Shown here piece by piece: positions 16,253-63,770 of a DNA stretch of 64,000 bases. Each line of letters starts with the position of its first letter. Position 1 is the stretch's first letter. Under the pieces are notes generated by a model. It saw only the letters and a list, made by a program, of their open reading frames with translations. It ran no database searches and was not told the origin of the DNA. The stretch lies in contig CAZOAL010000006.1 of assembly GCA_964577695.1 (NCBI GenBank), positions 177,511 to 241,510 of the forward strand. The letters run 5' to 3'. Origin of the DNA: an uncultured bacterium. GTDB taxonomy: Bacteria; Poribacteria; WGA-4E; PCPOR2b. The translations under genes and the position numbers were made by a program.

Positions 16253-19216
16253 ATGAACGCAATTTATTCAAGCAACCTGCAATCCATTCATAGCACCTTT
16301 GATTATCGCGAGAAATCAAGAAAGCAAGAGAACCGACAAACCAGCAGACTGACTTTCCGGCTTTCTGGTTCTCTTGGGCTTGTCCTCCTGCTGACCCTCT
16401 CCTGCCTCTCCGCCGCTTTTGCGGAACTCACCCCCACCACCCTGAAGCATGACGGTTGGGTATATTCAGTCGCCTTCAGCCCCGATGGAAAACTGCTGGC
16501 GACGGGGTCAAATGACAACACCGCCAAGGTGTGGGAGATGCCGTCGGGGGTGCTGTTGGCCACCCTCAAGCATGGCAGTTCTGTCCGGTCAGTCGCCTTC
16601 AGCCCCGATGGAAAGCTGTTGGTGACGGGGTCAGATGACAACACCGCCAAGGTGTGGGAGATGCCCGCTGGGAGGCTGATTGCCATCCTGAAGCATGACG
16701 ATGATGTAAATTCAGTCGCCTTCAGCCCCGATGGGACGCTGTTGGCGACGGGGACACGGCTAGCTGCCAAGGTGTGGGAGATGCCGTCGGGGGTGCTGAT
16801 GGCCACCCTGAAGCATGACGATTGGGTCGGGTCAGTCGCCTTCAGCCCCGATGGAAAGCTGCTGGCGACGGGGTCAGATGACAACACCGCCAAAGTGTGG
16901 GAGATGCCGTCGGGGGTGCTGATGGCCACCCTGAAGCATGACCCTATTGTAGGTTTTGTCTCCGTCGCCTTCAGCCCCGATGGGAAGCTACTAGCGACGG
17001 GGTCAGCGGACAAGACCGCCAAGGTGTGGGAGATGCCGTCGGGGAGGCTGATTGCCACCCTGAAGCATGACAATTATGTAAATTCAGTCACCTTCAGCCC
17101 CGATGGGAAGCTACTGGCGACGGGGTCTTATGACAACACCGCCAAGGTGTGGGAGATGCCGTCGGGGGTGCTGATGGCCACCCTCAAGCATGACGGTGAT
17201 GTCCGTTCAGTCGCCTTCAGCCCCGATGGAACGCTGCTGGCGACGAGGTCAAATCTCTGGAACAGTAATCTACAAAAATATACAATATCTGAAGCCAAAG
17301 TCTGGGAGATGCCGTCGGGGGTGCTGATTGCCACTCTCAAGCATGGTGATGGGGTCAGTTCAGTCGCCTTCAGCCCCGATGGGACGCTGCTGGCGACGGG
17401 GTCTGGTGGCAGTAGTAGGGTGTGGGCATCAAATACTGCTGATATTCCAATCCTCACGCAACCTTCAGATGGAAGCAAATTTGTAAACGCACTCCCCGAA
17501 CTAAAGTGGGGGAGGGTCCCGGATGTTTGGCTGTATCAAGTACAGGTGTCTAAAGACAAGAACTTTTCACAGATGGCAGTGGAGGCTTTCACCGGCGCAG
17601 AATCGTTGCAATCCAATATGGGGCAAATGGGTAGAGGTATTTTCTTTTGGCGTGTACGCCTAGTGGGATGGACTTTCGGAAACTGGTCGGAGGTTTGGAC
17701 ATTTAACATAGACCTGCCCGTTGTCCTCACCAAAATCAGCAATCAAGCAGGCTTGGACATCACCGTAGATATCGTCATCGAAGAGGTGAAAAACCTGTCG
17801 GGATTCCAGTTGAATCTGGGCTTTGATCCAAGCGTGCTGGAAACGGTCGGAGTTACCGAAGGTTCATTCCTCAAAAGCGACGGCAGCGGCACGTTCTGGA
17901 AACCTCCTGAGATTGACAATGTGGGGGGACAAATTCGCAACATCACAGGGGCGCGAATCGCTGCAACAGGCGTGGAGGGCTTGGGTGTGTTGGCGAGCGT
18001 TCAGTTCAAAGCCAAAAAGACCGGAACCTCCAGGTTGACCCTCAGCAGCGTCCAGCTGTCCGATGTGCAGAATAACGCTATTCCGCTGGTCACGGCAAGC
18101 GGCAGCGTGGAAATCGGCGCGACATCGATATTGAAGCCGGTGACAAAGGTGGACAAGTCCATCGTTGTCGAAGTGGTTGCGGGTAACGTCTTCAACCTGC
18201 ACGCCTTCAGCTTTGACCTGGCTTACGATGCGAAGTTGCTGGAAGTGATGGACGTGAGCGAAGGCGATCTGCTCAAACGGGATGGACATCAAACGACCTT
18301 TGGCGCTCCAAAGGTTGACGCTTCAAACGGCATCATCACAGGCATCACTGCGGAGAGGGTCAAGAAAGAGGGCGTGAACGCATCCGGAGTATTGGCGCGA
18401 ATTGAGTTTAAGATCTGGGAAGGCGGTGCTCCCAAATTCAGCATTCGCAACAGCAACCTGCGAGACCCGAACGGAAATGTCGTCTTGGCGACGCCCCAGG
18501 ATGCCAGCGTTACTGTCGTCGCTTCGCCGGAGTGGGACGTGAACAAAGATTACGTGGTGAACATTTTGGATCTGGTCATTATCGGCAGCAACTTCGGCAA
18601 AACGATCAGCGGCAAGCCCCGCCCCAATCCCGATGTCAAACCCGATGGCGTCGTGAATATCTTCGACATCATCCCCGTCGCCACCCATTTCGGTGAGAGT
18701 TACAGTGCCGTGCCGCAGCCCCCCGCCGCGCCTTTCGCTTTGCGCCTGGGGGAGAATAGGAATTATCGCGGTCAAGAGACCGCTCTCACAACGGCTCAAC
18801 GCGCCATTTTGCAATCGCTCTATGAAAAGCTGAAGGCTTATCCCGATACGGACCCTTCGGTGGTCGTCGTCAAGCGGTTGTTGGCGGCATTGCTGTCGAT
18901 AAAATCAGAACCAGCTTTGCCGGAAGTGACGCGACTGGCTCAGAACTATCCCAACCCCTTCAACCCCGAAACATGGATTCCGTACCAGTTAGCTCACGAT
19001 GCAGAGGTGCAGATTACCATCTACGACCTTAAAGGTTCAGTGGTGCGTCGGTTAGATCTGGGGCATCAGAAGGCGGGCTACTACGCTAATCGGGACAGTG
19101 CGGCGTATTGGGACGGCCGGAATGAGGCAGGTGAACGGGTTTCAAGCGGTGTGTATTTCTACACCTTCACCGCGGGAGCGTTCACTGAAACGCGAAGGCT
19201 GATAGTGCTGAAGTAG
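16253..19216 (+). CDS. secreted WD40-repeat protein (about 10 near-identical repeats) with cohesin/dockerin-like regions and a T9SS-type (Por_Secre_tail / FlgD-Ig-like) C-terminal domain
   Basis: Repeats VAFSPDGKLLATGSDDNTAKVWEM; DVNKDYVVNILDLVIIGSNFGK dockerin-like; C-terminal NYPNPFNPETWIPYQL...IYDLKG. Confidence 0.7.
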   Translation: MNAIYSSNLQSIHSTFDYREKSRKQENRQTSRLTFRLSGSLGLVLLLTLSCLSAAFAELTPTTLKHDGWVYSVAFSPDGKLLATGSNDNTAKVWEMPSGVLLATLKHGSSVRSVAFSPDGKLLVTGSDDNTAKVWEMPAGRLIAILKHDDDVNSVAFSPDGTLLATGTRLAAKVWEMPSGVLMATLKHDDWVGSVAFSPDGKLLATGSDDNTAKVWEMPSGVLMATLKHDPIVGFVSVAFSPDGKLLATGSADKTAKVWEMPSGRLIATLKHDNYVNSVTFSPDGKLLATGSYDNTAKVWEMPSGVLMATLKHDGDVRSVAFSPDGTLLATRSNLWNSNLQKYTISEAKVWEMPSGVLIATLKHGDGVSSVAFSPDGTLLATGSGGSSRVWASNTADIPILTQPSDGSKFVNALPELKWGRVPDVWLYQVQVSKDKNFSQMAVEAFTGAESLQSNMGQMGRGIFFWRVRLVGWTFGNWSEVWTFNIDLPVVLTKISNQAGLDITVDIVIEEVKNLSGFQLNLGFDPSVLETVGVTEGSFLKSDGSGTFWKPPEIDNVGGQIRNITGARIAATGVEGLGVLASVQFKAKKTGTSRLTLSSVQLSDVQNNAIPLVTASGSVEIGATSILKPVTKVDKSIVVEVVAGNVFNLHAFSFDLAYDAKLLEVMDVSEGDLLKRDGHQTTFGAPKVDASNGIITGITAERVKKEGVNASGVLARIEFKIWEGGAPKFSIRNSNLRDPNGNVVLATPQDASVTVVASPEWDVNKDYVVNILDLVIIGSNFGKTISGKPRPNPDVKPDGVVNIFDIIPVATHFGESYSAVPQPPAAPFALRLGENRNYRGQETALTTAQRAILQSLYEKLKAYPDTDPSVVVVKRLLAALLSIKSEPALPEVTRLAQNYPNPFNPETWIPYQLAHDAEVQITIYDLKGSVVRRLDLGHQKAGYYANRDSAAYWDGRNEAGERVSSGVYFYTFTAGAFTETRRLIVLK

Positions 19217-19325
19217 AAAACGTGAAACGTGAAACGTGAAACGTGATGAAGAGACCGTTCTTTTTCACGCATCACGCATCATTCTTCTCACGCATCACGC
19301 AGCACGCATCATTCCTTTCACGTTT
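19213..19325. repeat. hairpin-type repeat with tandem heptamer arms (GTGAAAC x3 / CACGCAT units) after the WD40 gene
   Basis: Seen in sequence. Confidence 0.6.
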
Positions 19326-19418
19326 CTGGTCTACATCGGTGACCTTTTAATCGGGCTTCCACTTAATAACGGTCGGTTACGCCCGCGCTTGACAACATAA
19401 AAATACGCCTCACAAATC

Positions 19419-20583: not shown

Positions 20584-20710
20584 CTTGAACAAAACAAGAT
20601 AGGTCATAAACTGCGATTTAATGTGCTGCATCTTGCATCTTGAATCCTGCATTCATCACAGATTCAAGATTCAGGATTCAGGATGCAAGAGTGTCATTTT
20701 GCAGTAGAGG

Positions 20711-21007: not shown

Positions 21008-21100
21008 GACTGACCTCGTGCGTAATTCGTAAGACGTAATGCGTAAAAAGACACTTGCTCTTGTTACGCATTACGCATTACGCATTACGTCTCACGTTTT
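21005..21100. repeat. hairpin repeat with CGTAATG/CGCATTA heptamer arms
   Basis: cgtaagacgtaatgcgtaa ... ttacgcattacgcattacgcattacg. Confidence 0.6.
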
Positions 21101-22554: not shown

Positions 22555-22695
22555 AGGGTTGGTCATTATTCTCAGGGGAGGCAATCGTAGCCCAAGATTT
22601 CGACAAGCTCAACCCGGCGGATTCTATCTTGGCCCCTGGCGCATGGGCCAAGATAGAATCTTGGGCTACAACTCAACCGCCGGCGAATTATGACC
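22555..22695. mobile_element. MITE-like repeat family B, copy 2 (composite). Its terminal ATGACCAAGCC supplies the first ATG of the downstream giant ORF
   Basis: cgtagcccaagatt...ggccaagatagaatcttgggctac core; gaattatgaccaagcc end. Confidence 0.6.
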
Positions 22696-22719
22696 AAGCC
22701 TTACTTACCTAAATTTACA

Positions 22720-25700
22720 ATGGTAAACCGAAAGAAAGCAGCAAAGATGAGAGATTGGAAAAAGAAAAGTTATATCATCTTATCCATCATCGTTGGTAGC
22801 CTGTACATCTTCGCAACGTCTACTGTTGCCCAAGAGATTAAACGTCAGTCTATCCCTGTTGGAATGTTCAATGTGTATGCCACCATTGACAACAACAATA
22901 CCGGTCTGCCAACGCCCGACCTCCGCGATGTCTGGCAGGGCGTGCCGACAAACTGGGAGGGGGGCTACTACCCTTACGAAGCGTGTAACCTTGTGCAGCA
23001 CTACTGGCCGAAGGAACTTCCGACGGATGTGCCACCGGGACAGGATGCGTATGTCGTTTGGTGGACACGGTTTCTCCGGGAGGTTTACGAGCAAGGCAAC
23101 GAGAAGGGCGAGGTTCGATTGCGTGCGATTGTCGGTCCACTTTTCAGCCATTACGAAGCGTTCGGCGAGCAGTGGCTCATCAATTTTATCCAACGGCTCT
23201 GTGAGTGGGAGCGGAGCGGCCCACACGATGGCGTAATTGCCGGATGGTATCTCATCGAAGAGCCAATGGGGTCGGGCTCGCACAACTTCAACGTTGACAC
23301 CTTTGAGGAGATGGCGAAGGTCGTCGATAAAGCGGAAACGGCCGGTGGCTTTCGACACCATGACCGCTATGTTGATGTTTCCCTTGATGGGGCATTTTTC
23401 ACTCCACAGGGGCTGGCGCGTTTCTGCCGCCCAGCCGATGTCGTGATGGTCAGCTCCAGCAGCTATCTCTGGCTGACGAGTGGGACGCAGCCTGTATTTA
23501 ATACGCGTTATCGGGATTTAGCGTTCTCAATGAACCAGGTTCGCCGCACCGTTTTTCCAGACCATGACCAACACGGGCTGCCGCGTCCTAAGATTCATCT
23601 CGTCCTGCAAGCCTACGATCCGATGGGGTTTGGACAACCGACGCATTGGGAGATGCGCCAGCAAATTCGAGAGGCGTTGACCCTTGATTTTGAATTGCTC
23701 GGCAACCAACCGGTTGCACCAGCGGATGGAATCTGGTTTTTCTGGTGGCCGGGGCTGACCTTTGAGAACAAAAACCGTGTGGACGACTGGCTCTACGGAC
23801 GACAGATTGCGGAAGCGATCGAGCTTGAAGTGGCAGAGGTGACGGGTAACGGAGGTGAAACCCGGTCTGTGAATGTGCCGACAGCATCCCGCTTTGCCTT
23901 CCCACCGCTGGTTCCCTTCAACCCGGACGATGGCATCATCCCCTACGAGTTGGCAAAGTCAGGGCTTGTCACAATCGAAATCCTCGACATGAATGGCTCT
24001 AAGGTTCAGGCGTTTGACATGGGGATTCAGAGCGCGGGGCGGCTGCACCGGTTCGGAGGCCCCCGCTGGTTGCCACTCTCAACCCAGCCTGACGGGCGAT
24101 ATATCTTCCGGCAGTTTCTCAACTCCGTCCCCGTTGACAGCGTTGAGGTGGAAGTGCAACGGCAACCACGCCTCTTTAGCCCTTCCCATGTGCCCAACAT
24201 TTGGTCAAACGACAACACCATTGAGGTGACATGGCGTCCACCCGCTCTGGGCGCGGGGTTGGGGGGATTTTCATTTCTGTGGAGCAATTCTCCTTTCAGC
24301 ATTCCGCCTCGCACCGTTGCACTGACGCCATCGGATGTCACGTATACAAGTCCACCGTTGCCGGATGGGAAATCGCACTATTTTCATCTCCTAAGCGTCG
24401 ATGCAAACGGCGAATGGGGGGAGACATCGCATTTAGGCCCATTCTGGATTGATACGATACCCCCAGCTTTACCTACCGATGTTGTCAGCTCCAGTCATAA
24501 GACCGGAATTTGGTCATCGGCAAACGTGATTGATATCAAATGGTCTGCTGCGCCCCCCCCTCAATCCCCCCCGCGGGCAGGGGGTGAAGAGGGGCCTCCC
24601 CCCCTGCCCGCGGGGGGGACAGGGGGGGGGGCGTCTTTGCGCGGCTATTCAATCGTCTGGGACCGTCAGCCGTTCACGCTCCCGCCAGCGGAGATTAACG
24701 TTGGGCCCGCTGTCACTGCACTCTCGACGCCTCCACTTGTGGACGGCATCTGGTATCTGCACTTGCGCCCTGCGGATGTCGCTGGCAACTGGACAAGCGA
24801 TGCTGTGCACCTTGGCCCCTTCCAGATTGACACCCACTCGCCCAATCCACCGTCCGACTTGAGGGGCGTCTCTCATCAGGTCGGCGTCTGGTCAAACCGT
24901 GCCGAGATTGAGTTGGAATGGACAGCCGCTTCGGATGAAACCAGCGGCATCAAAAATTATCTCATCGTTTGGGATACCTCCCCGGACACACATCCAACGC
25001 CTGATGCCAATCCGTCCATCTTCCTTCCGCCCCTACTTGCAGGGGGGGGGGCTGGCAATTCGCCTAAGGTCAGCTACCGTGGCCCTGCCCTCGTTGATGG
25101 CGATACCCATTACGTCCATCTTCGCGCTGTGGATGGTGCCGGGCTGACGACAGATGAAACGCTCCATCTCGGTCCCTTCCGAATCGACGCAACCCCGCCG
25201 GGCGATATTCGTGGCTTTGCCGCGTATGGCGTAGAGCCCCCGCCAACCCCTCCCCTCTCGCCTCTCCCCGCTAGCGGAGAGGTTCCGCTTGACCTCAACA
25301 AGTGGCTGATCTCCCCTCAAATGATCCTTGCGTGGCAGGTAAGCACAGATTCCGGTAGCAGCGTTGCGGTCTACGAAATTACGCGAGTGCGCCCGGAAAC
25401 GGGAGAACAGCAGACCTTCCAAATCAACGCGGATGCGCCATCTCAATGGACCCCGGCAGGTCTGAGCGATGGTGCTTGGGTATTTCGCCTCCGGGCCGGC
25501 GATAACGCTGGTAACTGGAGCGCTTATTCCGACCTGACGCTCAAGATTGATACCACCGTGCCAACGCCTATCCTCAACAGTCCCTCCCACCCGAATAGCG
25601 AACGCTGGTACGCGGATGCGAATCCAATCGTCGAATGGATGATTGAGCGCGATCTATCCGGCATCGCGGGGTATCTTGGAGAATGGAGCGATCAACCGGA

Positions 25701-28700
25701 CACCATTCCTCAAACGCCAATCAATGAATCGACAATCGACAATCGAGGTTCGGTGAATGGAGGAACGGAGGAAGTAGAGCGGGCGGCTCGCCCGTTTGGA
25801 AAGATACGCAATACGCAATACGCAATACGCAATACGAACGACTCACCACTCACCATTCACCCATCACTCCCTGACGGCATCTGGTATTTCCACCTGCGTG
25901 CGATCGACAACGCGGGCAACCGGAGCGAAGTCGCTCACTATAAGGTGCAGATTGAGCACCAAGTCCCTGAAACACCAATCATCCGCTCACAGACCCACCC
26001 CCCGGAGCGTTGGTCAAAGAGCCATATTGTCGATCTGCGTTGGGACGAAGCCCCCACATTGAGCGGCCCCCCCCGCTACAGTTTTGCGCTCGACCACGCC
26101 CCCGACACCCTCCCTGACGATACGCCCGAACCAATTAGGGAGGGTGAAGCTCCCGCTGAACCCCACATTGAGCAAACGCTGGACGATGGGATTTGGTACT
26201 TTCATCTCAAGGCAATTAGCAGAACCGGAATTAGGAGCGAGACCGCCCATTATCGTATACAGATTGATAGCCAGATTGCGACGCCGGTCATCCGCAGCCC
26301 CTCGCACGCGGATAGCACGAGCTGGTATGCGAACCCATCGCCGGTGATCGAATGGACGATTGCGGACGACCTCTCTGGAATTGCCGGCTATTTCGGCGAA
26401 TGGGATTCCCAACCGAACACGATTCCGCAAACGCCTATTTCTCCCTCACCCCCCCTCACCCCCGGCCCCTCTCCCACAGGGGGGAGAGGGGAGCCACTTG
26501 ATAACGAAAACAGGGTGTTCGCACTCCAAAGCGGGGTCTGGTACTTCCACCTGCGCGCGATCGATAACGCCGGCAATCTCAGCGAAACGGCGCACTACCA
26601 GGTTCGCATCGATGCGTCCGCGCCGGCTGTGCCTGTCATCCAGTCCAGCTCCCATCCGGCGGGCGTTTGGCGGTCTCAGTCGGCTGTGGATATCCGCTGG
26701 AACGTTGGCACCCCCACCCCAACCCTTCCCCGCGGACAGGGAGGGGGCTTGAGTGGGATGGCTGGCTATAGCTTCGTGCTAGACCAGAAACCCACCACGT
26801 TGCCTGATGAGCGGATTGACGGCCTTCAGCCTCAAGTGACAACCACGCTTGCGGATGGCATCTGGTACTTCCACCTGCGAGCGCAGAGCAATACGGGACT
26901 GTGGAGCGAAACTGCCCATTACGAGATACGAATTGACACCCACCCTCCCGAAATCACGATTACGCTGCCGCCTAGTGGGGAGCGGGAGCGCGAGGCTCCT
27001 GCCGAGTGGTTCAGGCAAGCCATCAATGAATACGCTGGGGAGATGCGCGATGAGCTATCCGGCATTGACGAGACAACGCTCGAATATCGGTACGCGGGGC
27101 TGGATTGGAAGCCCTTCGTCAACGAGGCGTCAAGCGGTTGGCTTGACACAAACGAATTGCCCCATGTCACCCAGGCAAGCGGCGTGTCGTTGCAAGTGCG
27201 CGTTCGCGATCGCGCGGAGAACGTTGGGCTGTCTGAGGAGCGGCTGATTCGCGTGGATGTCGAACCTCCATCACTGACAGTGACAAGTCCCACGCATCCC
27301 CAGCAGGGAAGATGGTACGCCGATCCGAACCCGGTGGTTGAATGGACGGTTAGTAGCGACCTCTCCGGGATTGCAGATTACTTTTGGGTGTGGGACAACC
27401 AATCGGACACGATTCCCCGGCAGGGCCAGAAAACCGGAGACCCAGAAAGCCAGACAGCCAACGAGAGCAAGTCACAGGTTCGGCGGGAGCCTCACCCTCC
27501 CACCAGTCACAGGTTCGGCGGGAGCCTCACCCTCCCACTCACGGATGGCATCTGGTATTTCCACTTAATCGCCTTTGATAACGCCGGCAACCCAAGCGAG
27601 CCAGTCCACTACCGTTTTCAAATTGACACGCAACCGCCGAAGGGGACGATTCACATTCTCAGACCGGAGGTCATCAAGGGTCGTCCAAAATCTGTTCGCT
27701 ATCTTGAATCAAAGGAGGTTCCGCCGCGCGTCAGCTCAGGAGAAATTCGGATTGTTCTCACGCTATCGGAAGAGATGATTGAGCCCCCGAAACTCTTTTT
27801 CCAGCCGAATAGTCGGCAGGAGATAGCCCTTGCACTCGGCCGGAGCCTCGTGCTCCCACTGGATGGGGCCGAGGGGGCACAAAATCGCTCGCCGCTTCAA
27901 TGGCACGCCACATTACAGGTTTCGCCTCACACAGGCGATGGTGTGGGCAAGTTTCGATTTGTCGGCACTGATGGAGCTGGCAACCTTGGGGGTGAAATTA
28001 CGATGGGCATGGAACTCGTCATCGATACGCTCATCCATGCGGATGAAACGGAAGTCCAGCATCGAATCGGCGATAACGGCGCGATTGCGACAATCCCTCC
28101 CCGAGCGCTCCGCTCCGATGTACGCTTGCACCTTGAGGCGTCCCCCCATACCCCCCCCTCCAGGGGGGGGACGCAAGGTTCTGACCCTGGCTTCCCCCCC
28201 GTGGACGGGGGGGGTACGGGGGGGACCACAGGGGGGGGGACATCCAACCGCTACCGCCTCATCGCCTGGGATGGAACTGGACGTCCCCTTCCGAATCTGA
28301 CGTTTGTCGCGCCGATTGAGTTACAACTGCCAATCGATGCAACGCAGCCGATTGGGGCGGGAGATGCCGCGTATACAGTGCTTTACAACGATGGTGTCAG
28401 GACCCATCGGATCGGCACCGTCGTCGCAGGTGGCCAGGCGATCGCGTCCGTCAGTCAGATCGGCGAATTTCTGATTGCCCCCGCGCCCACGCCCAAGCGG
28501 AAGATTACCGGCGGGTGGGCGGCCCCGAATCCTTTCACGCCCAACCACAGCGGCGATGCCAGCGATCGAACAATCTTCCACGTTCAAACGCGGGGGGACG
28601 ATGTGACCTTCACCATCGAAATCTATGGCCTGACGGGACGACGCATTCGCACGTTGCGCAACGGATTGAATGTGTGGGATGGGTCAGATGAAAGCGGCAG

Positions 28701-28782
28701 GGTTGTCGAAAATGGTGTGTACATCTACCAGATTCATGCGGGGGATGAGGTGATTAGCGGGACCGTTGTCGTGGTGAGGTGA
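22720..28782 (+). CDS. giant secreted modular surface protein (about 2020 aa): N-terminal TIM-barrel-like putative glycosyl-hydrolase-like domain, about 10 tandem ~100-aa beta-sandwich modules (PSHP..RWYA..DLSGIAGY..WD.QPDTIP...DGIWYFHLRA.DNAGN) and a T9SS-type C-terminal sorting domain
   Basis: Repeated modules visible in the translation; C-terminal PNPFTPN...FTIEIYGLTGRRIRTL tail; signal-peptide-like N-terminus after M at 22720 or 22747. Confidence 0.65.
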   Translation: MVNRKKAAKMRDWKKKSYIILSIIVGSLYIFATSTVAQEIKRQSIPVGMFNVYATIDNNNTGLPTPDLRDVWQGVPTNWEGGYYPYEACNLVQHYWPKELPTDVPPGQDAYVVWWTRFLREVYEQGNEKGEVRLRAIVGPLFSHYEAFGEQWLINFIQRLCEWERSGPHDGVIAGWYLIEEPMGSGSHNFNVDTFEEMAKVVDKAETAGGFRHHDRYVDVSLDGAFFTPQGLARFCRPADVVMVSSSSYLWLTSGTQPVFNTRYRDLAFSMNQVRRTVFPDHDQHGLPRPKIHLVLQAYDPMGFGQPTHWEMRQQIREALTLDFELLGNQPVAPADGIWFFWWPGLTFENKNRVDDWLYGRQIAEAIELEVAEVTGNGGETRSVNVPTASRFAFPPLVPFNPDDGIIPYELAKSGLVTIEILDMNGSKVQAFDMGIQSAGRLHRFGGPRWLPLSTQPDGRYIFRQFLNSVPVDSVEVEVQRQPRLFSPSHVPNIWSNDNTIEVTWRPPALGAGLGGFSFLWSNSPFSIPPRTVALTPSDVTYTSPPLPDGKSHYFHLLSVDANGEWGETSHLGPFWIDTIPPALPTDVVSSSHKTGIWSSANVIDIKWSAAPPPQSPPRAGGEEGPPPLPAGGTGGGASLRGYSIVWDRQPFTLPPAEINVGPAVTALSTPPLVDGIWYLHLRPADVAGNWTSDAVHLGPFQIDTHSPNPPSDLRGVSHQVGVWSNRAEIELEWTAASDETSGIKNYLIVWDTSPDTHPTPDANPSIFLPPLLAGGGAGNSPKVSYRGPALVDGDTHYVHLRAVDGAGLTTDETLHLGPFRIDATPPGDIRGFAAYGVEPPPTPPLSPLPASGEVPLDLNKWLISPQMILAWQVSTDSGSSVAVYEITRVRPETGEQQTFQINADAPSQWTPAGLSDGAWVFRLRAGDNAGNWSAYSDLTLKIDTTVPTPILNSPSHPNSERWYADANPIVEWMIERDLSGIAGYLGEWSDQPDTIPQTPINESTIDNRGSVNGGTEEVERAARPFGKIRNTQYAIRNTNDSPLTIHPSLPDGIWYFHLRAIDNAGNRSEVAHYKVQIEHQVPETPIIRSQTHPPERWSKSHIVDLRWDEAPTLSGPPRYSFALDHAPDTLPDDTPEPIREGEAPAEPHIEQTLDDGIWYFHLKAISRTGIRSETAHYRIQIDSQIATPVIRSPSHADSTSWYANPSPVIEWTIADDLSGIAGYFGEWDSQPNTIPQTPISPSPPLTPGPSPTGGRGEPLDNENRVFALQSGVWYFHLRAIDNAGNLSETAHYQVRIDASAPAVPVIQSSSHPAGVWRSQSAVDIRWNVGTPTPTLPRGQGGGLSGMAGYSFVLDQKPTTLPDERIDGLQPQVTTTLADGIWYFHLRAQSNTGLWSETAHYEIRIDTHPPEITITLPPSGEREREAPAEWFRQAINEYAGEMRDELSGIDETTLEYRYAGLDWKPFVNEASSGWLDTNELPHVTQASGVSLQVRVRDRAENVGLSEERLIRVDVEPPSLTVTSPTHPQQGRWYADPNPVVEWTVSSDLSGIADYFWVWDNQSDTIPRQGQKTGDPESQTANESKSQVRREPHPPTSHRFGGSLTLPLTDGIWYFHLIAFDNAGNPSEPVHYRFQIDTQPPKGTIHILRPEVIKGRPKSVRYLESKEVPPRVSSGEIRIVLTLSEEMIEPPKLFFQPNSRQEIALALGRSLVLPLDGAEGAQNRSPLQWHATLQVSPHTGDGVGKFRFVGTDGAGNLGGEITMGMELVIDTLIHADETEVQHRIGDNGAIATIPPRALRSDVRLHLEASPHTPPSRGGTQGSDPGFPPVDGGGTGGTTGGGTSNRYRLIAWDGTGRPLPNLTFVAPIELQLPIDATQPIGAGDAAYTVLYNDGVRTHRIGTVVAGGQAIASVSQIGEFLIAPAPTPKRKITGGWAAPNPFTPNHSGDASDRTIFHVQTRGDDVTFTIEIYGLTGRRIRTLRNGLNVWDGSDESGRVVENGVYIYQIHAGDEVISGTVVVVR
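24553..24633. repeat. G/C mini-palindrome (poly-C-CCGCGGGCAGGGGG ... CCCCCTGCCCGCGGGGGGG) lying in frame inside the giant CDS
   Basis: Encodes PPPQSPPRAGGEEGPPPLPAGGTGGGA; shares the CCGCGG core with similar elements at 26710-26748 and 59992-60060. Confidence 0.6.
25775..25862. repeat. heptamer-arm repeat element ((ACGCAAT)x4 ... (ACTCACC)x3, preceded by palindrome cgggcggctcgcccg) lying in frame in a loop of one module of the giant CDS
   Basis: Translated as ERAARPFGKIRNTQYAIRNTNDSPLTIHPS; same unit type as intergenic hairpin repeats. Confidence 0.6.
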
Positions 28783-32298: not shown

Positions 32299-32340
32299 GG
32301 GGGGAGATAAACTGAGTGGTTGAAAACAAAATCCGGCTAA

Positions 32341-32445
32341 CAAAGCAGGTAGGTCAGGCTGCGCCTGACACCATATAGTCAGGCACAGCCTGACCTACTT
32401 ACTGACACCATATAGTCAGGCACAGCCTGACCTACTTACTCTGAC
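32341..32445. repeat. complex imperfect hairpin (aggtaggtcaggctgcgcctgac...cagcctgacctactt) followed by a 37-bp tandem direct repeat (gacaccatatagtcaggcacagcctgacctacttact x2)
   Basis: Seen in sequence. Confidence 0.6.
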
Positions 32446-32793
32446 TTTGGAGACGCTCTTAGGTTTGGAAGTGATGAGCCCTGTGATCTTGTTGTTGGTA
32501 AGGATGCTATCGATACTAAATACAGGGTGGGTTCTGGAGATTCTGGAACTCTAAAAAAGTTCAAGCAATATGGAAAATTACTTCAAGATGAAGGTTATAC
32601 CCCTGTTCTATTATTGGTTCGAGATGACAACTTGCCTGCTGCAATAACAGCATGCGAGGTCGGCGGATGGACGATTTCCACAGGGAAGGCAACATTTGAC
32701 TACATCGAACAAAAAACGGGTTTCGATTTATTGGGTTGGTTGAGCAATCATAGAGATAGAGGAACATTCTTGATTAATAGGGAGCAGCAATGA
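32431..32793 (+). pseudogene. 5'-truncated ORF (no ATG; opens immediately after the hairpin/direct-repeat region) overlapping the downstream MTase by ATGA; possible remnant of the cognate restriction endonuclease
   Basis: Reading frame DFGDALRFGSDEPCDLVVGKDAIDTKYRVGSGDSGTLKK...; position and 4-bp overlap suggest an R-M operon; function not recognised. Confidence 0.3.
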
Positions 32794-33716
32794 ACTATTT
32801 AGATCAAATTCTTCAAGGTGACTGCATTTCTATTATGTCAGAAATGCCAAAGGATTCTATTGCTGCGTGTATCACCGACCCACCATACAATTATGAATTT
32901 ATTGGTAGAAAATGGGATGACAAGGAAATCAATCGAAGATTAGAGAGAATAAAAGAGAGCAAAACACTTGTGAAAAATATCCCCTATGGGAGTGGGTTGG
33001 CTGGAGGAGTCCGCAATTTTAGATGGTATGAAAGAAATTATGAAAATGTAATTGAGTACACAAACTGGTGCAAAGAGTGGGGTAAGGAGCTTTTTAAGGT
33101 ATGCAAGAACGGATCACCCGTTGCTGTTTTCAATAGCACAAGAACCGTGGCGCATGTACAAGTCGCTCTTGAAGAAGCTGGTTTCTATACACGCGATATT
33201 CTTGTACATCGCCGACGTTCAGGCATACCAAAGGGGTTAAACCTTAAAAGCAAATTAGAAAAAATGCATCATCCGGATGCAGATAAATGGGAGGGCTGGC
33301 ACACTTGCTTTAGAAACGAATGGGAAGCGATAGTGCTTGTTCAGAAGCCTTTAATTAAAAACTATTGGGAGACACTTGAAAAAACAGGTGTTGGAGTCTT
33401 TAAGACTCTCAATGAAGATGGCTCTTTTCAGTCAAACATTCTAGAGGGTTACTATAGTAAGTCTGAGAAAAAGTTTGCGCACTGCACGGTCAAGCCTTTG
33501 GAGCTAATAAAGAAACTTATTCTTACTCTGGTGCCGAAATCGGATGACAACGTAGTTCTAGACCCTTTTGCCGGAAGTGGCACTACTCTAGTAGCGGCAA
33601 AACAGCTCGGTTATCATTTTACAGGAATCGAAATAGAGCCAGAGTATGTACAAATAATTGAAAATAGAATCTTAGAAACCTTTCAGCCTGCACTTGAATT
33701 TGAAAAAAGCACCTAA
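32790..33716 (+). CDS. beta-class DNA methyltransferase (DPPY motif IV near the N-terminus, FAGSGTT motif I near the C-terminus), probably N6-adenine
   Basis: ACITDPPYNY and VLDPFAGSGTTLVAA motifs; AT-rich. Confidence 0.75.
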   Translation: MNYLDQILQGDCISIMSEMPKDSIAACITDPPYNYEFIGRKWDDKEINRRLERIKESKTLVKNIPYGSGLAGGVRNFRWYERNYENVIEYTNWCKEWGKELFKVCKNGSPVAVFNSTRTVAHVQVALEEAGFYTRDILVHRRRSGIPKGLNLKSKLEKMHHPDADKWEGWHTCFRNEWEAIVLVQKPLIKNYWETLEKTGVGVFKTLNEDGSFQSNILEGYYSKSEKKFAHCTVKPLELIKKLILTLVPKSDDNVVLDPFAGSGTTLVAAKQLGYHFTGIEIEPEYVQIIENRILETFQPALEFEKST

Positions 33717-43808: not shown

Positions 43809-43819
43809 GACCGTTTCTG

Positions 43820-45637: not shown

Positions 45638-45667
45638 TAAAAGAAACCGAGTTTTTTCAAAAAACTC
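45632..45667. terminator. hairpin repeat family D copy 2 (agaaaccgagttttttcaaaaaactcggtttct)
   Basis: Seen in sequence; flanks the phosphoesterase gene on the other side from copy 1. Confidence 0.5.
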
Positions 45668-45706
45668 GGTTTCTCGTTACTAAATTTTCAATCTCCATAA
45701 ATCTTT

Positions 45707-48792: not shown

Positions 48793-48850
48793 ATCTTTCT
48801 CCTAAAATAAATTGCAATGCGTGAAACGTGAAACAGCAAATGAGCAAAGG

Positions 48851-48985
48851 CATGTTTCAGAAAACGGTTGACACTTCGAGAGCATGATGCGTGAGGCGTA
48901 AAACGTGAAACGTAAGAAGAGCTCCCTTTACGTTTTACGTTTTACGAAAGCAGTTCAACACCTTTTTTCGGAAATTTGAAACATG
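48851..48985. mobile_element. MITE-like repeat family A, copy 4 (contains ttgacac; internal CGTGAAA/CGTAAAA heptamer hairpin)
   Basis: catgtttcagaaaacggttgacac ... cggaaatttgaaacatg. Confidence 0.7.
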
Positions 48986-53536: not shown

Positions 53537-53923
53537 TTATGGGATTTTTATAAACAATGTCCGAATTTCAGCAATGACCTCCGCAAGAGTTGGAGCTGTC
53601 GATTCGACGATTTGTCCATCGGCTGTATGTTTATGATGAGGATAGGTTTTCAAAGCCTTCGCTCTGGGATCAGGGGCATTATCGTATCGAAATAGAAATT
53701 TATCTTTCCGCATGAAATGGTAGGAATACTTAATTCGATCAATGTCCCATTCGACATCTACATACTCCGAGAAGTGTAGTCGCGAATCATCGATGAAGTA
53801 GATATCGCCTCGGATATAGCCGATAAAATTTGAACGTTGATCGAATGTGATATTTTGACTGCTAATCTCCGCAACAGTATCCAGATTTGATAGAATCTGG
53901 TCGAAATAATCTGTTATCTGCAT
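53537..53923 (-). CDS. hypothetical protein (AT-rich; possibly the toxin-like member of a two-gene module)
   Basis: ORF; overlaps the upstream 93-aa ORF by 10 bp. Confidence 0.4.
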   Translation of the reverse strand: MQITDYFDQILSNLDTVAEISSQNITFDQRSNFIGYIRGDIYFIDDSRLHFSEYVDVEWDIDRIKYSYHFMRKDKFLFRYDNAPDPRAKALKTYPHHKHTADGQIVESTAPTLAEVIAEIRTLFIKIP

Positions 53924-54195
53924 ATTTTTAATTCATCAATCTGTTTCAACTTCTCCCTCAAACGACGCAGGACTTCGGTTTCACCTTCCCATTCCACCCA
54001 ATCAAAGTCGTCGATTTCTCTGGCAGAACTTTTCAATACTTGGAGCGAACAACCATATTTTTCCTCAAAGTGAGTCATCCGCGCTTCGGTTTTTTCGATG
54101 CCTAAGCGTAAAAAAGCTGCTTCTTTTAATAAAGCCGATTGAATGAGATGTATCGTCTCTTCGACGTTTTTTGCCTCAATTGTCAATGATGCCAT
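53914..54195 (-). CDS. hypothetical small protein (AT-rich; possible antitoxin-like partner)
   Basis: ORF in an operon-like overlap. Confidence 0.35.
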   Translation of the reverse strand: MASLTIEAKNVEETIHLIQSALLKEAAFLRLGIEKTEARMTHFEEKYGCSLQVLKSSAREIDDFDWVEWEGETEVLRRLREKLKQIDELKICR

Positions 54196-54198
54196 AAT

Positions 54199-55473: not shown

Positions 55474-55794
55474 TCACAAACCAAGTTGCACCTTCACAGC
55501 ATCTTCTATTCTGCGCATGTCAGCTACAGACAGCCTACCTATCCGGTTCATTAAGCGCAACTTGCTTACAGTGGTGAGTTGGTCAGCCATAGCTTTGTGC
55601 CGCCTGCCATTCAGCGTCATATAGGCCTCGCTCGGATAGAGCCGATCTACGTTGCTTGTCAGTGGCACGACTTGCACGCGGTTCAAATGTTTATTTGAAG
55701 CATCGTTGCTGATGATAACTGCCGGTCGCTTCTTTCGGATCTCCCCACCAACTGACGGTTCAAAGTTGACCCACCATACTTCACCGCGGTTCAT
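55474..55794 (-). CDS. mazF: MazF/PemK-family endoribonuclease toxin
   Basis: [29 protein letters not shown] motif. Confidence 0.75.
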
Positions 55795-56011
55795 CGCTCA
55801 CATCTCCTATAGTTGCTTCCGACCATTCCAAAGCATCAGCTTCACGCGCTTTATCTTGGGCCATCTCCGCATAGGCAGCCTCAAAATCTTGATGAAGCAC
55901 ATAAGGACGCACCAGGTCTTCAATAAAGCGGCTGATATGGTGACGGCCTATAACCCGGTGCAAACCTTCATAGACTTTCTCGTTGATCGTGATAGTAAGC
56001 TTTTTCTGCAT
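55781..56011 (-). CDS. MazE-like antitoxin
   Basis: 77 aa; overlaps mazF by 14 bp; RBS GGAGGT. Confidence 0.55.
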
Positions 56012-56059
56012 GATACCAGCACCTCCATTAACACAACTCATTTCCCTCCTGCGCTTCGC

Positions 56060-56125
56060 TGTCCTCATTTCCTTTATCCTTACGTTTTACGCAATACGCA
56101 ATACGTTTCACGTTTCACGCTTTCC
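56060..56125. repeat. heptamer-unit repeat (ACGCAAT x2, CACGTTT x2) between the proB start and the TA module
   Basis: Seen in sequence. Confidence 0.5.
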
Positions 56126-59694: not shown

Positions 59695-61281
59695 TCAACG
59701 CTTTGCTCCCAGCTTCAGCTTTTTCAGCGTGAAGGGGGTGTATTGCGACTCGCCTTCAACGATCCGGATGAACTGATCGACCGGCACGTTATGGAAGGTT
59801 TGTGTGAGTCCGGTGGTTGGCCAAAAGACCTCAAGAGTCTCGATTTTTTCCGCCACCCCCAAGCCGATTGTCTGCCTCAAGGGATTGGCACCGAAACTGC
59901 CGCCGCTGTTGACATGCTTGTAGATGGCGCGTCTGGCACCGTTCTCAATGACTTCGGCGCGGATGCGCGCCCCGATGGCCGATCGGTTGCTCCCCCCCCC
60001 CGCCCGCGGGGGGGATTTAAGGGCATCCCCTCGGCCCCCCCCGTGAACGGGGGGGGTGCCGACCAATTGAATGCTGATAAAATGATTGCCGAACCCTGGG
60101 TTTTCATACAGGACGTTGCTGTACCTGTCGCCGGGGAAGGCACCGCCCATCTGCTCGAAAACGTCCGAATCGCCATCGTTGTCAAGGTCAGCAAAGACAA
60201 CGGCATGTCCCTTCTGCAAGTGACCGAAGCCACCCGTGTATGTCACGTCCACGAACCGCCGCCCCCCCTGATTGCGGTACATGACGTTCGGCATCAGTTC
60301 CTGATAGTCCGGGTACCCCGTGCCGAGGTAAAAATCGAGATAGCCATCGTTGTCGAGGTCGCCAAAGTTGGCCCCCATTGGCGCGTTGGGGTGTATCAGG
60401 TTGTATTGTTTGGCAACTTCCTCAAACCCGCCGCTCCCATTTCCACGATATAGACAAGCCAACTCGGTTTGTACGGGCCTCCCAAGGGCGTCTGCCGCGA
60501 TCTCCGCGATGCCAGCGGCATAAGCGGACACATACAGGTCTAAGACGCCATCGTTGTCAAAGTCCCAGAACCAGGCGGGAAAGCTCTCCATCGGAAAGGC
60601 AACATCCAGTTGCCAGGCCATGTCAGTGAAAGTCCCATCGCCGTTGTTGCGATAGAGGCGATTGGGGCCCTTGTAGTTGGACACGTAGATGTCCTGCCAG
60701 CGGTCACCATCATAATCGCCCCAGATGACGGCCTTGGTAAAACCGTTGTTCTGCACACCGGCTATCGCGGCGACATCGGTAAAGCTGCCGTCGCCATTGT
60801 TGTGGAAAAGTTGGCATGGGGCGTTCAACGTCCCGGAGGATTCGTTTCCGATGTACAGATCGAGCGCACCGTCATTGTCATAATCACCCCAGGAGGCGGT
60901 CTGGGTGGGGTAATGCACCAAGCCCAAACCGGCATCGAAGGTCACGTCCGTGAACGTGCCATCCCCGTTGTTACGCAACAGGGAGTTCGGATGCCTCCCA
61001 TTTTGGCCAAGCCAGGCACCCCGTAGCACGAGGATATCGGTATCCCCATCGTTGTCATAGTCCGCTTGAATGAGGTTCAGTCCGCCATACAGCCCCAGCA
61101 GTCCGGCACGTTCCGTTTGTTCGGAGAAGGTGCCGGACTGATTGTTCCTGAAAAAATGAATCTGTCCAGCGGTGTCCGAGGTCGAAACCACGATGTCCAG
61201 ATAGCCGTCGTTGTCGAAATCGTCAGCGATGGCACCGCCCGCCAGATCGAATGTATCAAGCCCCAGACGCGGCTCGATGTT
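59695..61281 (-). pseudogene. CRTAC1/ASPIC-UnbV-family protein with FG-GAP repeats, 5'-truncated (no signal peptide or start) by the adjacent IscB element
   Basis: FG-GAP motifs DFDNDGYLDIV, DYDNDGDTDIL; C-terminal UnbV_ASPIC-like region; the frame opens directly after AT-rich junk at 61285-61344. Confidence 0.6.
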
Positions 61282-61344: not shown

Positions 61345-62574
61345 TTATACGGCTTTTTCCCAGATGACGGTTTGCCCTCGCACTAACAATTGACAGTCTT
61401 TTGGTTTTGCGGCATTGGGTTCACCTTTGACTCGTGCAAAGGCTAAGTACCCGTTACTATAAATGGAGTTGATTTGCTTAACCCATTTTCCTTTAACACC
61501 GACTATATCGCCTTTGCGAAAACCATCTAATTCCACATTGACCTGATACCTCACACGTCCCACCCCTTTACGTGGCAAGTCGTGGTAAATCCGCCGTGTT
61601 TGTCGAGGTCTGAACGTGACGATATAAAAGTTTTCACGATTTTCTGGGATAACATCACCCATTTCTAAGGTTGCAACACACAAGGCATCAATCGAGTGGC
61701 TTTTGGCTAAATCGAGTGATTTGCGATAAAAGGAGGTCTGATAACCAAACACTTTTGATAGTTTAGCCATTTGACCTAATGTTTCATAGAGGTATGCTTT
61801 TCCTTGCATGGTTCGTTGGGCGATTCGATCCTCAAACCCGCTGACACCGCTGACATCAAGTTGAAGTTTCCCAAGATGTGTCTTATTGTGACAAGGTTTG
61901 CAAAGCGTTATCAAGTTGGTAATCGTATCTTTACCCCCCTGTGAGCGTGGGACAATGTGGTGTGCTTCAAGAGGAGGGTTCTTTTCCCCGCACGGTGTAC
62001 ATTGGTAGCCATCACGCATCAAGGTTGCAATTCGGAGGTTTTCATCAAGGCGGTTCGATTGTTGATAGGCTTGCCCAATCAAGGTCGGGTTATTCAGACG
62101 GGCAATATCAACCTGCACATCTTCAATGACAATGGAGGTCATTGGCAATGGAATTTGACGCACAACACGAATCACCTCATCGGCATTGGCTTTTATTGAG
62201 GGTGGCAGACGCCCACTGCGCTTTGACGAGGCACGGTTTGAAAAACGTCTCGGGCGATACCATGTTCGGTTACGTCTGTTTCGCCTGTTAGCTCGTCGGG
62301 CGTCCATTTTGTCTTTGATGTCCGTTCGATGATTGATTTCACCTGACATCAAAATTCGTCCGTTTGCCACACAACTCAATCCTGTGATGTGACTCCCTTT
62401 GTCAATACCAACGGTTACCTGTTGGACATTTTCTTCACAATCCCAAAGCAGTTGAATCGTAAACGGACACCGATTCACGACTTTGGCTTTCTGATCTCGC
62501 AACAACTTTCTTGCCTTGGCGGGTTTACATGGCATTAATGGCGTGCCATTTTTATTTCTAACATAAACATTCAT
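61345..62574 (-). mobile_element. iscB: iscB: IS200/IS605-family OMEGA RNA-guided nuclease (no tnpA nearby; non-autonomous element)
   Basis: PLMP motif (TPLMPCKPAKARKLL), RuvC-I GIDKGSHITG, arginine-rich bridge RRANRRNRRNRTWYRPRRF, RuvC-II IVIEDV, HNH (CTPCG...HHIVPRSQGG...CKPCHNKTH), 409 aa. Confidence 0.8.
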
Positions 62575-62924: not shown

Positions 62925-63590
62925 TCAGAGCCATCTCGATCGAAGATCAGGATAACGCCGAATCCCCCCTACCCCCCTTTCCAAAGGGGGGTAGGGGGGA
63001 TTTTCCGACGGATTCTGCAATACCTGAGTAAAACAAGCAATCGCTTGTCGAGCGGCATCCTGCTGGGTGTGGAGACCGCCGCCGCGCAGGGGCAGGATGC
63101 AGCTTTCGGGCATAAGGCGCAGGCAACAGTTTTGTGTTTCACCCAGCCGTAGGTACGCCACACCGAGGCGAAAGAGGGTTTGATTCACCACCGCCGGTAC
63201 TGGACTCCCCCCCTCAATCCCCCCCAAAGTTGTGGGGGAAGGGGGAGGTAGCAACTGGCGCGCCCGTGTAAAGAGATTGATTGCCTCCGCTTCATTCCCC
63301 AGATGAAGTTCCGCCTCCCCCGCTGCCATATACAGTTGCCATCGCTCTGAGGCTGGCGTGTCAGCGGGAGTCGCCGCGAGCCGTTCCCGTAACCGACGCG
63401 CCACGCTATCCCCGATGTAAATGTGTTCTTCTGGAGTTTGGTCAGCAATCTGTTTCAGCACATCCAACATCTTCTGGTGGCCCGGTGAAACTTCACGCGC
63501 GGCTGTCTCGGCAGGTATGGAGGCGACAAAACCCACCGTCCAGAGGGTCAAAAGCACGCCTGCAATGATTGGACGGCATGAGCAAACCAT
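62925..63590 (-). CDS. TPR-like secreted protein; the C-terminal region carries two in-frame G/C mini-palindromes
   Basis: Signal-peptide-like N-terminus; helical repeats; palindromes at 62957-63003 and 63205-63250. Confidence 0.35.
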   Translation of the reverse strand: MVCSCRPIIAGVLLTLWTVGFVASIPAETAAREVSPGHQKMLDVLKQIADQTPEEHIYIGDSVARRLRERLAATPADTPASERWQLYMAAGEAELHLGNEAEAINLFTRARQLLPPPSPTTLGGIEGGSPVPAVVNQTLFRLGVAYLRLGETQNCCLRLMPESCILPLRGGGLHTQQDAARQAIACFTQVLQNPSENPPYPPLERGVGGIRRYPDLRSRWL

Positions 63591-63689
63591 GGATGTCCCC
63601 TTCTCTTGATGATTTCGTGATTCACGAGGAAAGTTAGGTACCTACCTAACCCAAGTTGTCAGTTATTTCAATTTCGTTTCGCCATTCTG

Positions 63690-63770
63690 GAAGGAGAGGA
63701 AGAAAAGGAAGGAAAGGAAGGAGAACCGGCTTGAAGTCGCTTTCTTCCTTTCCTTCCATCCCTCCTTTCT
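63690..63770. repeat. GGAAGG-unit hairpin repeat
   Basis: ggaaggagaggaagaaaaggaaggaaaggaagg ... cttcctttccttccatccctcc. Confidence 0.55.

Follow-up and report, generated by a model that had tools for sequence, protein, structure and literature searches.

Palindromic interspersed elements with tandem 7- to 8-nucleotide stems in an uncultured relative of Candidatus Poribacteria

A stretch of 64,000 nucleotides (nt) from an uncultured bacterium, termed here the window (GenBank assembly GCA_964577695.1, contig CAZOAL010000006.1, positions 177,511 to 241,510 of the forward strand), carries many short hairpins whose arms are built from tandem units of only a few nucleotides. What are these repeats, and why do so many of them lie at the ends of genes? 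A sequence-only reading of this DNA had grouped eleven loci into one superfamily resembling repetitive extragenic palindromic (REP) sequences and bacterial interspersed mosaic elements (BIMEs). The explanation that we favor, with a probability of roughly 60%, is that they are lineage-specific, non-coding palindromic repeats of the DNA itself, present in a freshwater or groundwater relative of Candidatus Poribacteria and composed of two layers, a dispersed element and stems that behave like microsatellites. The repeats are mosaic palindromic DNA similar to miniature inverted-repeat transposable elements (MITEs), REP doublets forming hairpins (REPINs), enterobacterial repetitive intergenic consensus (ERIC) sequences and BIMEs, but they lack the unit size and tag that define REPs and the target duplication that defines classical MITEs. 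They have the look of selfish or structural junk DNA, and no new gene system or new biochemical function is indicated.

Tandem arrays are found in the window far more often than in randomized sequence. At a Tandem Repeats Finder score of at least 30, 32 non-overlapping arrays with periods of 6 to 9 nt are present, compared with 4.1±1.5 per shuffle (maximum 7) over 40 shuffles that preserve the dinucleotides of the window. For period 7 alone, the counts are 19 and 1.15 per shuffle (maximum 3). All period-7 arrays are intergenic or straddle a stop codon, with the sole exception of a cluster at 25727-25861. In their head-to-tail 7-nt units, their above-chance number and their mostly non-coding location, the arrays correspond to heptanucleotide simple sequence repeats (SSRs).

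Each array comprises two to six copies of a unit, usually followed by a short spacer and then by a complementary or related run. Reading the sequence at all eleven loci reveals repeats of the kind described, and the proposed arrangement of tandem unit, spacer and second unit pairs as a hairpin at most of them. However, the direct arrays at 45606-45626, 48818-48834 and 56080-56120 have no complementary arm. The units read CGTAAAA and CGTGAAA, CGTAATG and CGTGATG (complements of CGCATTA and CGCATCA, respectively), and a purine-rich GGAAG type. The last of these had been described as a GGAAGG hexamer, and is instead an imperfect unit of 8 to 9 nt, TGGAAGRW. The single superfamily likewise gives way to at least four unrelated unit families that had been lumped together, namely RCGTNAW 7-mers, TGGAAGRW 8-mers, GGTKGTTN 8-mers and GATGCAA, all of which occur among hairpin cores. 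Three loci extend the earlier list: a GATGCAA-type hairpin at 20626-20690, the arrays within a coding sequence at 25727-25861, and the core of a fourth framed element at 48897-48946. The repeats are as abundant as had been suggested (about one locus per 4.5 kb), lineage-specific and mostly intergenic near gene ends. They are also, as had been stated, not CRISPR arrays, which require repeats of 23 to 50 nt and unique spacers; units here are 7 to 9 nt, head to tail and without spacers.

Ten loci were folded as single-stranded DNA and each was compared with 200 shuffles. Eight of them, with z between -2.75 and -7.5 (-3.6 to -7.5 for most), are more stable than 199 or 200 of the 200 shuffles, and two, at 39540-39655 (z -1.8) and 63685-63765 (z -1.5), fold weakly.

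Beyond the repeats described in the sequence-only reading, four of the window hairpins prove to be the variable cores of one dispersed element of about 120 to 160 nt with a conserved frame and terminal inverted repeats, all four copies being on the + strand. The frame has the layout GG-CATGTTTCAGAAAACnGTTGACAC … GTGTCAACAC-T6-GRAATTTGAAACATG-CC. When the four copies are aligned, about 25 to 30 nt are conserved on each side of the core, with the consensus CATGTTTCAGAAA[A/C]C..TT[G/T]ACAC on the left and TCAAC.C-T5-7-..G[A/G]AATTTGAAACATG on the right. The termini are fixed (GG-CATGTTTCA … TGAAACATG-CC) and the boundary is sharp: the GG and CC are 92-97% conserved, and similarity ends there. The 11 nt at each end form inverted repeats (GGCATGTTTCA/TGAAACATGCC) like the terminal inverted repeats of MITEs. 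Further in, the clamp GTTGACAC pairs with GTGTCAAC, and the whole element forms one rod-like hairpin with a variable centre. Covariation at the clamp position (35 G-C, 6 T-A, 15 T·C and 2 G·A; p=0.02) is weak and is confounded by descent within subfamilies. Two such subfamilies can be recognized. Subfamily A (…AAAAC.GTT…TTCGAGAAC) has 7-mer or GGTKGTT cores, and subfamily B (…AAACCTCTT…CTTTG) has GGAAG-type cores.

Three of the four window copies belong to subfamily A. E1 (127-254) consists of 2.7 copies of CGTAAAA, a loop and 2.9 copies of TTTACGT, and folds as DNA with -23.8 kcal/mol (z -5.2). E2 (484-602) has CGTAATG units, two in the left arm and four in the right. E4 (48851-48985), which is built from CGTAAAA and CGTGAAA units, is located between the stop of a PEGA gene and the start of a GFO gene, both on the - strand. 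E3 (13999-14157) has the AAACCTCTT frame of subfamily B around a hairpin of GGAAG-type 8- to 9-mers, and is flanked by the stop of an AMP-binding gene (13988) and by the ribosome-binding site and ATG (14177) of the next gene.

The framed element is widely dispersed. Scanning metagenome contigs with its left-end pattern yielded 115 further stretches; 118 loci were fetched in all, and L-numbers below denote fetched contigs of metagenomes or relatives. From these, 81 non-redundant complete elements of 43 to 325 nt (median 142) were extracted. Their cores are RCGTNAN 7-mers in 39 cases, GGAAG-type 8-mers in 21, GGTKGTT 8-mers in six and composites in two, and the remaining 13 have another core or none; coreless frames of 43 to 80 nt occur in L028/L066, L112 and L058. 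Thirty-three pairs of elements are at least 88% identical within unrelated flanks, and form clusters of 7, 4, 3, 3, 3 and fewer members that share one loop each. It follows that complete elements were copied into new positions. With four framed and about ten unframed loci in the window and 115 stretches beyond it, the repeats share with REPs and REPINs a high copy number, an extragenic location and the lack of a target duplication. The first layer would be a non-autonomous element of about 120 to 160 nt that has been copied to many loci, presumably by an enzyme, without duplication of the target.

In a collection of species-representative genomes, the left-end pattern has one match, on the 1.5-kb contig L003 (CAYVZN010000121.1). 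Both a GGAAG hairpin and a framed element are present on this contig, which is binned as Candidatus Saccharibacteria but probably comes from a Poribacteria-like genome and was misbinned. Among viral contigs there was a single match, within a coding sequence and attributable to chance, and a plasmid search gave none. Elements are often found at synteny breaks, as in L103 compared with E1 and in L040 compared with L077. Several are also found in contact with each other. In L077, positions 345-575 hold a truncated subfamily-B element followed head to tail by a complete one, which amounts to a partial tandem duplication, and in L051 and L055 elements abut or interrupt one another.

The stems vary in the manner of microsatellites. 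The number of units differs between the two arms in 27 of 41 elements. Both arms share one majority unit in 27 of 37 elements, and four unit types are represented among them. Within one cluster of near-identical elements, the copy in L070 differs by ±1 unit. In L091, A is changed to C in three left-arm units and T to G, the complementary change, in two right-arm units, with loop and frame unaltered, so the change is concerted and compensatory. The unframed hairpin at 19217-19325 (+ strand; z -3.7) consists of 4.1 copies of AAACGTG and a 3' arm of CACGCAT units that are complementary at five of seven positions. Each of its arms is uniform for a different variant, CGTGAAA on one side and the complement of CGTGATG on the other, which indicates that homogenization is faster within an arm than between arms.

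Unequal arms, copies that differ by one unit and the two-arm change in L091 fit replication slippage together with template switching in quasi-palindromes. In the second layer, the stems of framed and frameless hairpins and the lone arrays would all be arrays of 7- to 8-nt units that act as microsatellites. Units would be gained and lost by replication slippage, and variants would spread among the units of one arm. A complementary variant on the opposite arm, seen in at least one copy, might arise by template switching within the hairpin or by selection for pairing. According to the summary of Mrázek 2007 in one later report (PMC4679880), heptanucleotides make up the commonest class of long SSR in most prokaryotic genomes, a pattern for which slippage of the polymerase has been suggested.

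Small modules are nested within the arrays. The mini-module M1 (20 nt, GAGAGCAGGAAACCTGCACG) is found in eight distinct contexts with at most one substitution, seven of them being edges of GGAAG arrays. The mini-module M3 (24 nt, GATTTCGACAAGCTCAACCCGGCG; 22596-22620, + strand) is inserted in a palindromic element at 22555-22701, is absent from a paralogous palindrome at 40649-40773, and is present inside the heptamer core of L073. These two palindromes constitute a third family of 125 to 147 nt, with ends GAGGGTTGGTCAT…ATGACCAACCCTC, and are in opposite orientations. Insertion of modules of 20 to 24 nt into arrays would account for the mosaic, nested structures.

Elements lie 2 to 30 nt past stop codons, and gene starts are more distant; some elements are nonetheless only 8 to 30 nt before the ribosome-binding site of the next gene, inside apparent operons. 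Four genes of the window terminate within an array or immediately beside one. The WD40/cohesin gene (+ strand; stop TAG 19214-19216) reads TAG-AAAACGTGAAACGTG, and the hairpin at 19217 follows directly. The ADH gene (- strand; stop TAA 21099-21101) reads TAA-AACGTGAGACGTAATG and is abutted by a hairpin of CGTAATG units at 21019-21098 (- strand; z -7.5). The OmpA-family gene (- strand; stop 36423-36425) reads TAG-AAACGTGATGCG. It precedes a composite unit at 36340-36422 (- strand; z -5.0), which joins a GGAAG-type hairpin to 4.6 copies of TTTCACG/CATCACG and reads TAG-AAACGTGATGCGTGATG… on the gene strand. The stop of proB (- strand; TGA 56115-56117) is inside GCGTGAAACGTGAAACG, within the direct heptamer array at 56080-56120 (- strand), whose gene strand reads GCGTGAAACGTGAAACGTATTGCGTATTGCGTAAAACGTAAGG. 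With TGA or TAA in each RCGTNAW unit and a period of 7, three units provide a stop in every frame, so that an array can grow into the last codons of a gene.

The 3' end of proB was compared in seven related genomes, whose Obg proteins are 69-80% identical. The Obg protein of the window is 100% identical to one encoded on a 243-kb contig in NCBI, JGI and Logan, and some of its more distant matches, of about 68-69% identity, bear the label Candidatus Poribacteria. Arrays are present at the proB stop in five of the eight genomes, including that of the window. An RCGTNAW array runs through the stop in L121 and directly follows the TAA stop in L125; L124 has complement-type units, and L127 has 6.9 copies of a GGAAG 8-mer. 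In L123 and L126, only the single unit-like GAAACGTGA is present, and in the more distant L128 nothing follows the stop. The last three to seven residues of ProB vary in line with the array. These comparisons show that the arrays are old, and that they evolve in place within limits set by coding constraint. Such repeats would persist where they do no harm, as in a short spacer just past a stop codon, and the tolerant loops of a giant repeat protein, described below, would have been invaded as well. Possible effects on the host include transcripts that end in a stable 3' hairpin, and elements that serve as sites of ectopic recombination and interrupt assembly from short reads.

Several observations weigh against the proposal of a mobile palindrome with microsatellite stems. 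Slippage and template switching are inferred from patterns in the sequences rather than observed. In 78 copies, flanking direct repeats of 2 to 8 nt at offsets of 0 to 3 are not above expectation, so classical MITE transposition is unsupported, although a palindromic CATG might be duplicated within a GGCATGCC target. No clean pair of filled and empty orthologous sites was recovered; differences between strains fall at contig ends or where synteny is broken. Seven samples of about 4 to 21 kb from related genomes contained no frame; the age and host range of the element are thus poorly bounded, and the framed element appears narrower in range than the arrays. Pfam scans identified no REP-associated tyrosine transposase (RAYT, of the Y1 type), for which the sequence-only reading had proposed a search, and no DDE transposase among the approximately 60 open reading frames (ORFs) of the window. 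Also, no transposase family is among the 25 most frequent Pfam families of the 150 longest ORFs that neighbor elements, a list in which rare families would not show. Finally, the recurrence of RCGTNAW at many independent loci and the arrays that start exactly at stops could instead reflect a sequence-specific function or targeting.

The alternative that survives best, albeit an unlikely one, is that the elements are functional RNA hairpins at 3' ends, either bidirectional intrinsic terminators or stabilizers against exonucleases like E. coli REPs, in which selection on stability keeps the arms paired. Their location just past stop codons, the compensatory changes between arms and the position of an array after proB that is kept across genomes would all be explained in this way. 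On the + strand of framed elements, the stem closed by GTGTCAAC is directly followed by T5-7, and the - strand carries GTTTTCT. The elements are not flagged by a simple scan for promoters and terminators, in which canonical terminator-like sites are unenriched in the window (22 versus 23 expected), so something else may terminate transcription. However, unframed hairpins lack T runs, the one-armed arrays at 45606, 48818 and 56080 cannot fold, other arrays lie within a coding sequence, and some elements closely precede a ribosome-binding site in apparent operons. Orientation relative to gene ends, which the sequence-only reading had asked to be checked, is not biased toward the strand with the strong U tract: between co-directional genes, 10 elements are sense and 16 antisense, with a further five between convergent and two between divergent genes. 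The strands are also alike in predicted RNA folding, with mean energies of -57.9 kcal/mol (+) and -58.2 kcal/mol (-) for the 81 elements (Wilcoxon p=0.78), and neither strand of these elements has an excess of G·U over A·C. A count of ORF stops near array starts gave 43 sense versus 9 antisense, which is biased because the units contain stop codons in the sense reading only, and it shows only that stops are in phase with units. Rfam 15 has no match in the window at the gathering score, and at permissive thresholds E1 and E2 matched nothing but a miRNA hairpin, by chance (E=0.31). A role as terminator or stabilizer is plausible as a side effect, but the absence of orientation bias, the arrays with a single arm and the copies in coding sequence argue that it is not what maintains the elements.

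A second alternative, which we regard as improbable, is that the stems are built and edited by an active process that requires no transposase. Such a process would lengthen both arms in register, transfer variants between them and allow M1 and M3 to insert autonomously, with the frame serving as a site of entry or exchange. If it exists, these repeats would be a non-cyanobacterial counterpart of Elhai's "very small mobile elements", and, given their many near-identical copies of recent origin, a tractable system for the movement of DNA segments shorter than 30 nt.

Perhaps, although this is still more doubtful, the arrays are cooperative sites for sequence-specific proteins (nucleoid-associated, regulatory or translational) that recognize RCGTNAW or GGAAG, and the hairpins are secondary. 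A CGT-A core is conserved across the heptamer variants at many independent loci, and arrays recur at the proB stop in different genomes. There is also a precedent in Beggiatoaceae, where TAACTGA heptamers upstream of start codons have been proposed as sites for a regulator (PMC4679880). In opposition to this explanation, at least four unrelated unit families occupy equivalent positions, and even the proB site has RCGTNAW in four genomes and GGAAG in L127. Moreover, unit numbers and variants are highly unstable, arrays are found alike after stops, before starts and in a coding sequence, and no candidate binding protein was identified.

It is very unlikely that the frame is a recombination site at which cores are swapped as cassettes at a fixed locus. 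This idea is suggested by L018 and L037, whose flanks are 97-99% identical to the window and whose frames are those of E1 and E4, but in which a GGTTGTTAG-type core replaces the heptamer core. However, both contigs end 24 to 40 nt into the core, and a chimeric assembly across the 33 to 36 nt of shared frame is possible. The coreless frames, and the different elements that follow orthologous genes in L040 and L077, are also suggestive of exchange. Yet the far flank differs too in the fully spanned comparisons of L103 with E1 and of L040 with L077, which ordinary ectopic recombination or rearrangement explains. Also, frame subfamily and core type are strongly linked, and no recombinase was found.

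The repeats do confound short-read assembly, as the sequence-only reading had predicted, in that contig ends cut 19% of elements versus about 6% expected. L001 and L002 end inside E4, which L119 spans with a 1-nt indel. This indel is the sole repeat difference among Logan and JGI contigs, which are 99.96-100% identical to the window across the repeats. A different strain, L103, whose flanks are 94% identical, retains E2 with two substitutions. The same array families are found on Mb-scale contigs of related genomes; the names and sizes of L121, L125 and L127 suggest that they are long-read assemblies. Although the window is itself a metagenome-assembled contig and contigs often end in elements, the chance that the repeats are artefacts of short-read assembly, which the sequence-only reading had named as its refutation, is negligible given these base-for-base agreements, the retention in a second strain, the relatives' large contigs and the presence of the element on more than 100 independent metagenome contigs.

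How, then, do palindromic elements with microsatellite-like stems relate to known repeats? ERIC sequences, also called intergenic repeat units (IRUs), occupy transcribed intergenic DNA as imperfect palindromes about 127 nt in length, and internal insertions give rise to their size variants. Rickettsia palindromic elements (RPEs) are inserted in frame into protein-coding genes, as are the arrays and the poly-C/G hairpins of the long ORF at 22690-28782. Unlike ERIC sequences and RPEs, the present elements have microsatellite-like stems, belong to a different phylum and have no sequence relationship to either. In cyanobacteria, short tandemly repeated repetitive (STRR) sequences are tandem heptanucleotide arrays in intergenic DNA. 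Small dispersed repeats (SDRs) of Nostocaceae, the subject of a 2008 report by Elhai in Genome Research, are reportedly near-identical modules of about 20 to 27 nt nested in heptamer arrays and in MITE-like elements. M1 and M3 behave alike, as near-identical modules in this size range that are nested in repeats and variably present. The phylum and sequences differ, and the arms here are paired and inverted inside a conserved frame. According to one source, SDR-like repeats were not found in other HIP1-enriched cyanobacterial genomes outside Nostocaceae (PMC5861425).

REP, REPIN and BIME sequences, as characterized in three sources, resemble the present repeats in several ways (PMC2817692, PMC3116915, PMC3733652). 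All are abundant extragenic palindromes that often lie past stops, lack a target duplication, and cause rearrangements and assembly breaks; REPINs are long hairpins of two inverted halves, and BIMEs are mosaics of several motifs. The elements are nevertheless not REPs by definition. They are 43 to 325 nt long and end in GGCATGTTTCA/TGAAACATGCC inverted repeats, their stems are tandem 7- to 8-nt units of several unrelated families, and they have no 20- to 40-nt unit and no GTAG/CGTC tag. No RAYT was seen among the ORFs of the window. Likewise, there are no REP units in alternating orientation as in BIMEs, and only the mosaic, nested character is common to both, so that the earlier label BIME-like is fair as an analogy. 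MITEs, including a minisatellite MITE of Porphyromonas gingivalis (PMC4596501), are similarly small, non-coding and bounded by terminal inverted repeats, with dispersed near-identical copies and, in this case, an internal tandem repeat of variable number. They differ from the elements described here, for which no target-site duplication was detected and no partner insertion sequence found, and in which units form both arms of a hairpin rather than a one-directional minisatellite. The long SSRs of prokaryotes (Mrázek 2007) and the TAACTGA arrays of Beggiatoaceae also have a heptanucleotide unit, lie in intergenic DNA near gene ends and change copy number in the manner of slippage. In contrast to the paired hairpins after stops that predominate here, those arrays are one-directional and mostly upstream of starts (PMC4679880).

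Sequence inspection eliminated several other candidates. The frame contains TTGACA, but lacks a usable -10 box at a spacing of 16 to 18 nt, and was rejected as a promoter. A sigma-54 promoter, an integron attC site and a retron have the wrong motif spacing or orientation, and no reverse transcriptase or integrase is present.

What is new is a palindromic interspersed element of an uncultured candidate phylum, in which the two arms of a stem of tandem 7- to 8-nt units vary in concert, and which combines features of MITEs and REPINs, of microsatellites and of nested mini-insertions. It provides natural material for the study of template switching in quasi-palindromes and of the mobility of very small repeats. 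In practice, the elements fragment short-read assemblies and bins, mark rearrangement junctions, rewrite last codons (as in proB) and add peptide stretches to a giant surface protein.

The remaining unframed loci of the window are varied. The GATGCAA-family hairpin at 20626-20690 (TGCATCT/AGATTCA heptamers; z -3.6) is located between convergent genes, and its units also form the core of a framed element in L053. A composite unit at 39544-39651, which begins 17 nt past the stop of a DUF547 gene (- strand), combines 2.9 copies of AAACGTA with imperfect CCTTCC-type arrays in a weak hairpin. An imperfect hairpin of GGAAG-type units at 63688-63758 is upstream of a TPR gene (- strand) and is present in L119 too. 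The one-armed (CGTGAAA)x2.1 array at 48818-48834 lies in the leader of the GFO gene and ends 16 nt before the left end of E4 (48851). The direct array CGTAAGCGTGAAACGTGAAAA at 45606-45626, also without a partner arm, is in a 5' leader beside a terminator hairpin. This hairpin, at 45642-45674, has 16 perfect base pairs and A and T runs (AGAAACCGAGTTTTTT/AAAAAACTCGGTTTCT), and is a canonical bidirectional terminator; the organism thus uses ordinary terminators as well.

The arrays in coding sequence at 25727-25861 (+ strand) comprise 2.9 copies of AATCGAC, 4.7 of ATACGCA and three of ACTCACC. They are in frame within an ORF of 2030 amino acids at 22690-28782 (+ strand), which has a Big_13 domain, a CHU_C/T9SS (type IX secretion system) signal and modules of about 100 amino acids (…SGIAGY…DGIWYFHLRA…), and they occupy a variable loop of one module. 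Further translated repeats in loops of this ORF are an 8-mer array at 27425-27460, a perfect 35-nt duplication at 27470-27538, and poly-C/poly-G hairpins. These in-frame repeats resemble RPE insertions. The C-run and G-run hairpins, such as AATCCCCCCTACCCCCCTTT/AAAGGGGGGTAGGGGGGATT, form a second family with copies at 24551-24633, 28142-28223, 59994-60056 and 62961-63002. All four are in coding sequences and encode Pro-rich and then Gly-rich stretches.

A perfect tandem duplication of 37 nt (32365-32440) overlaps an inverted repeat of 26 to 42 nt (32341-32443), between an MmeI-type restriction-modification gene and the next methylase operon. In L037, a strain that is 95-98% identical, window positions 40928 and 45546 are about 11 nt apart. 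The intervening 4.6 kb or so (40929-45545), with three or four genes including that of a PSCyt1 protein, is present in the window and absent in L037, and one junction is beside the palindrome at 40649-40773.

No autonomous insertion sequence with the same termini was found in the window or in the 118 fetched loci, and the 150 ORFs that neighbor elements in the metagenome loci are typical Poribacteria-like genes. In Pfam scans of the window, genes of ordinary metabolism are joined by many for toxin-antitoxin and restriction-modification systems and by a single IscB-like gene. The last is an ORF of 409 amino acids at 61345-62574 (- strand) with RRXRR (2.7e-53) and HNH domains. Its product looks like an IscB-type nuclease (OMEGA, related to IS200/IS605), and neither a TnpA gene nor a framed element is adjacent to it. 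Genes for toxin-antitoxin pairs and for DNA modification are unusually dense in the window (6235-7042, 15234-15876, 34587-34877, 53537-54195 and 55474-56068; 7992-8819 and 29386-33716). The former include MazE/PIN, DUF433/DUF5615, TumE and PemK types, and the latter encode methylases of Dam-like and N6_N4 type and an MmeI-type enzyme. The window also encodes a HerA-like ATPase and an AAA_21/DUF4276 pair.

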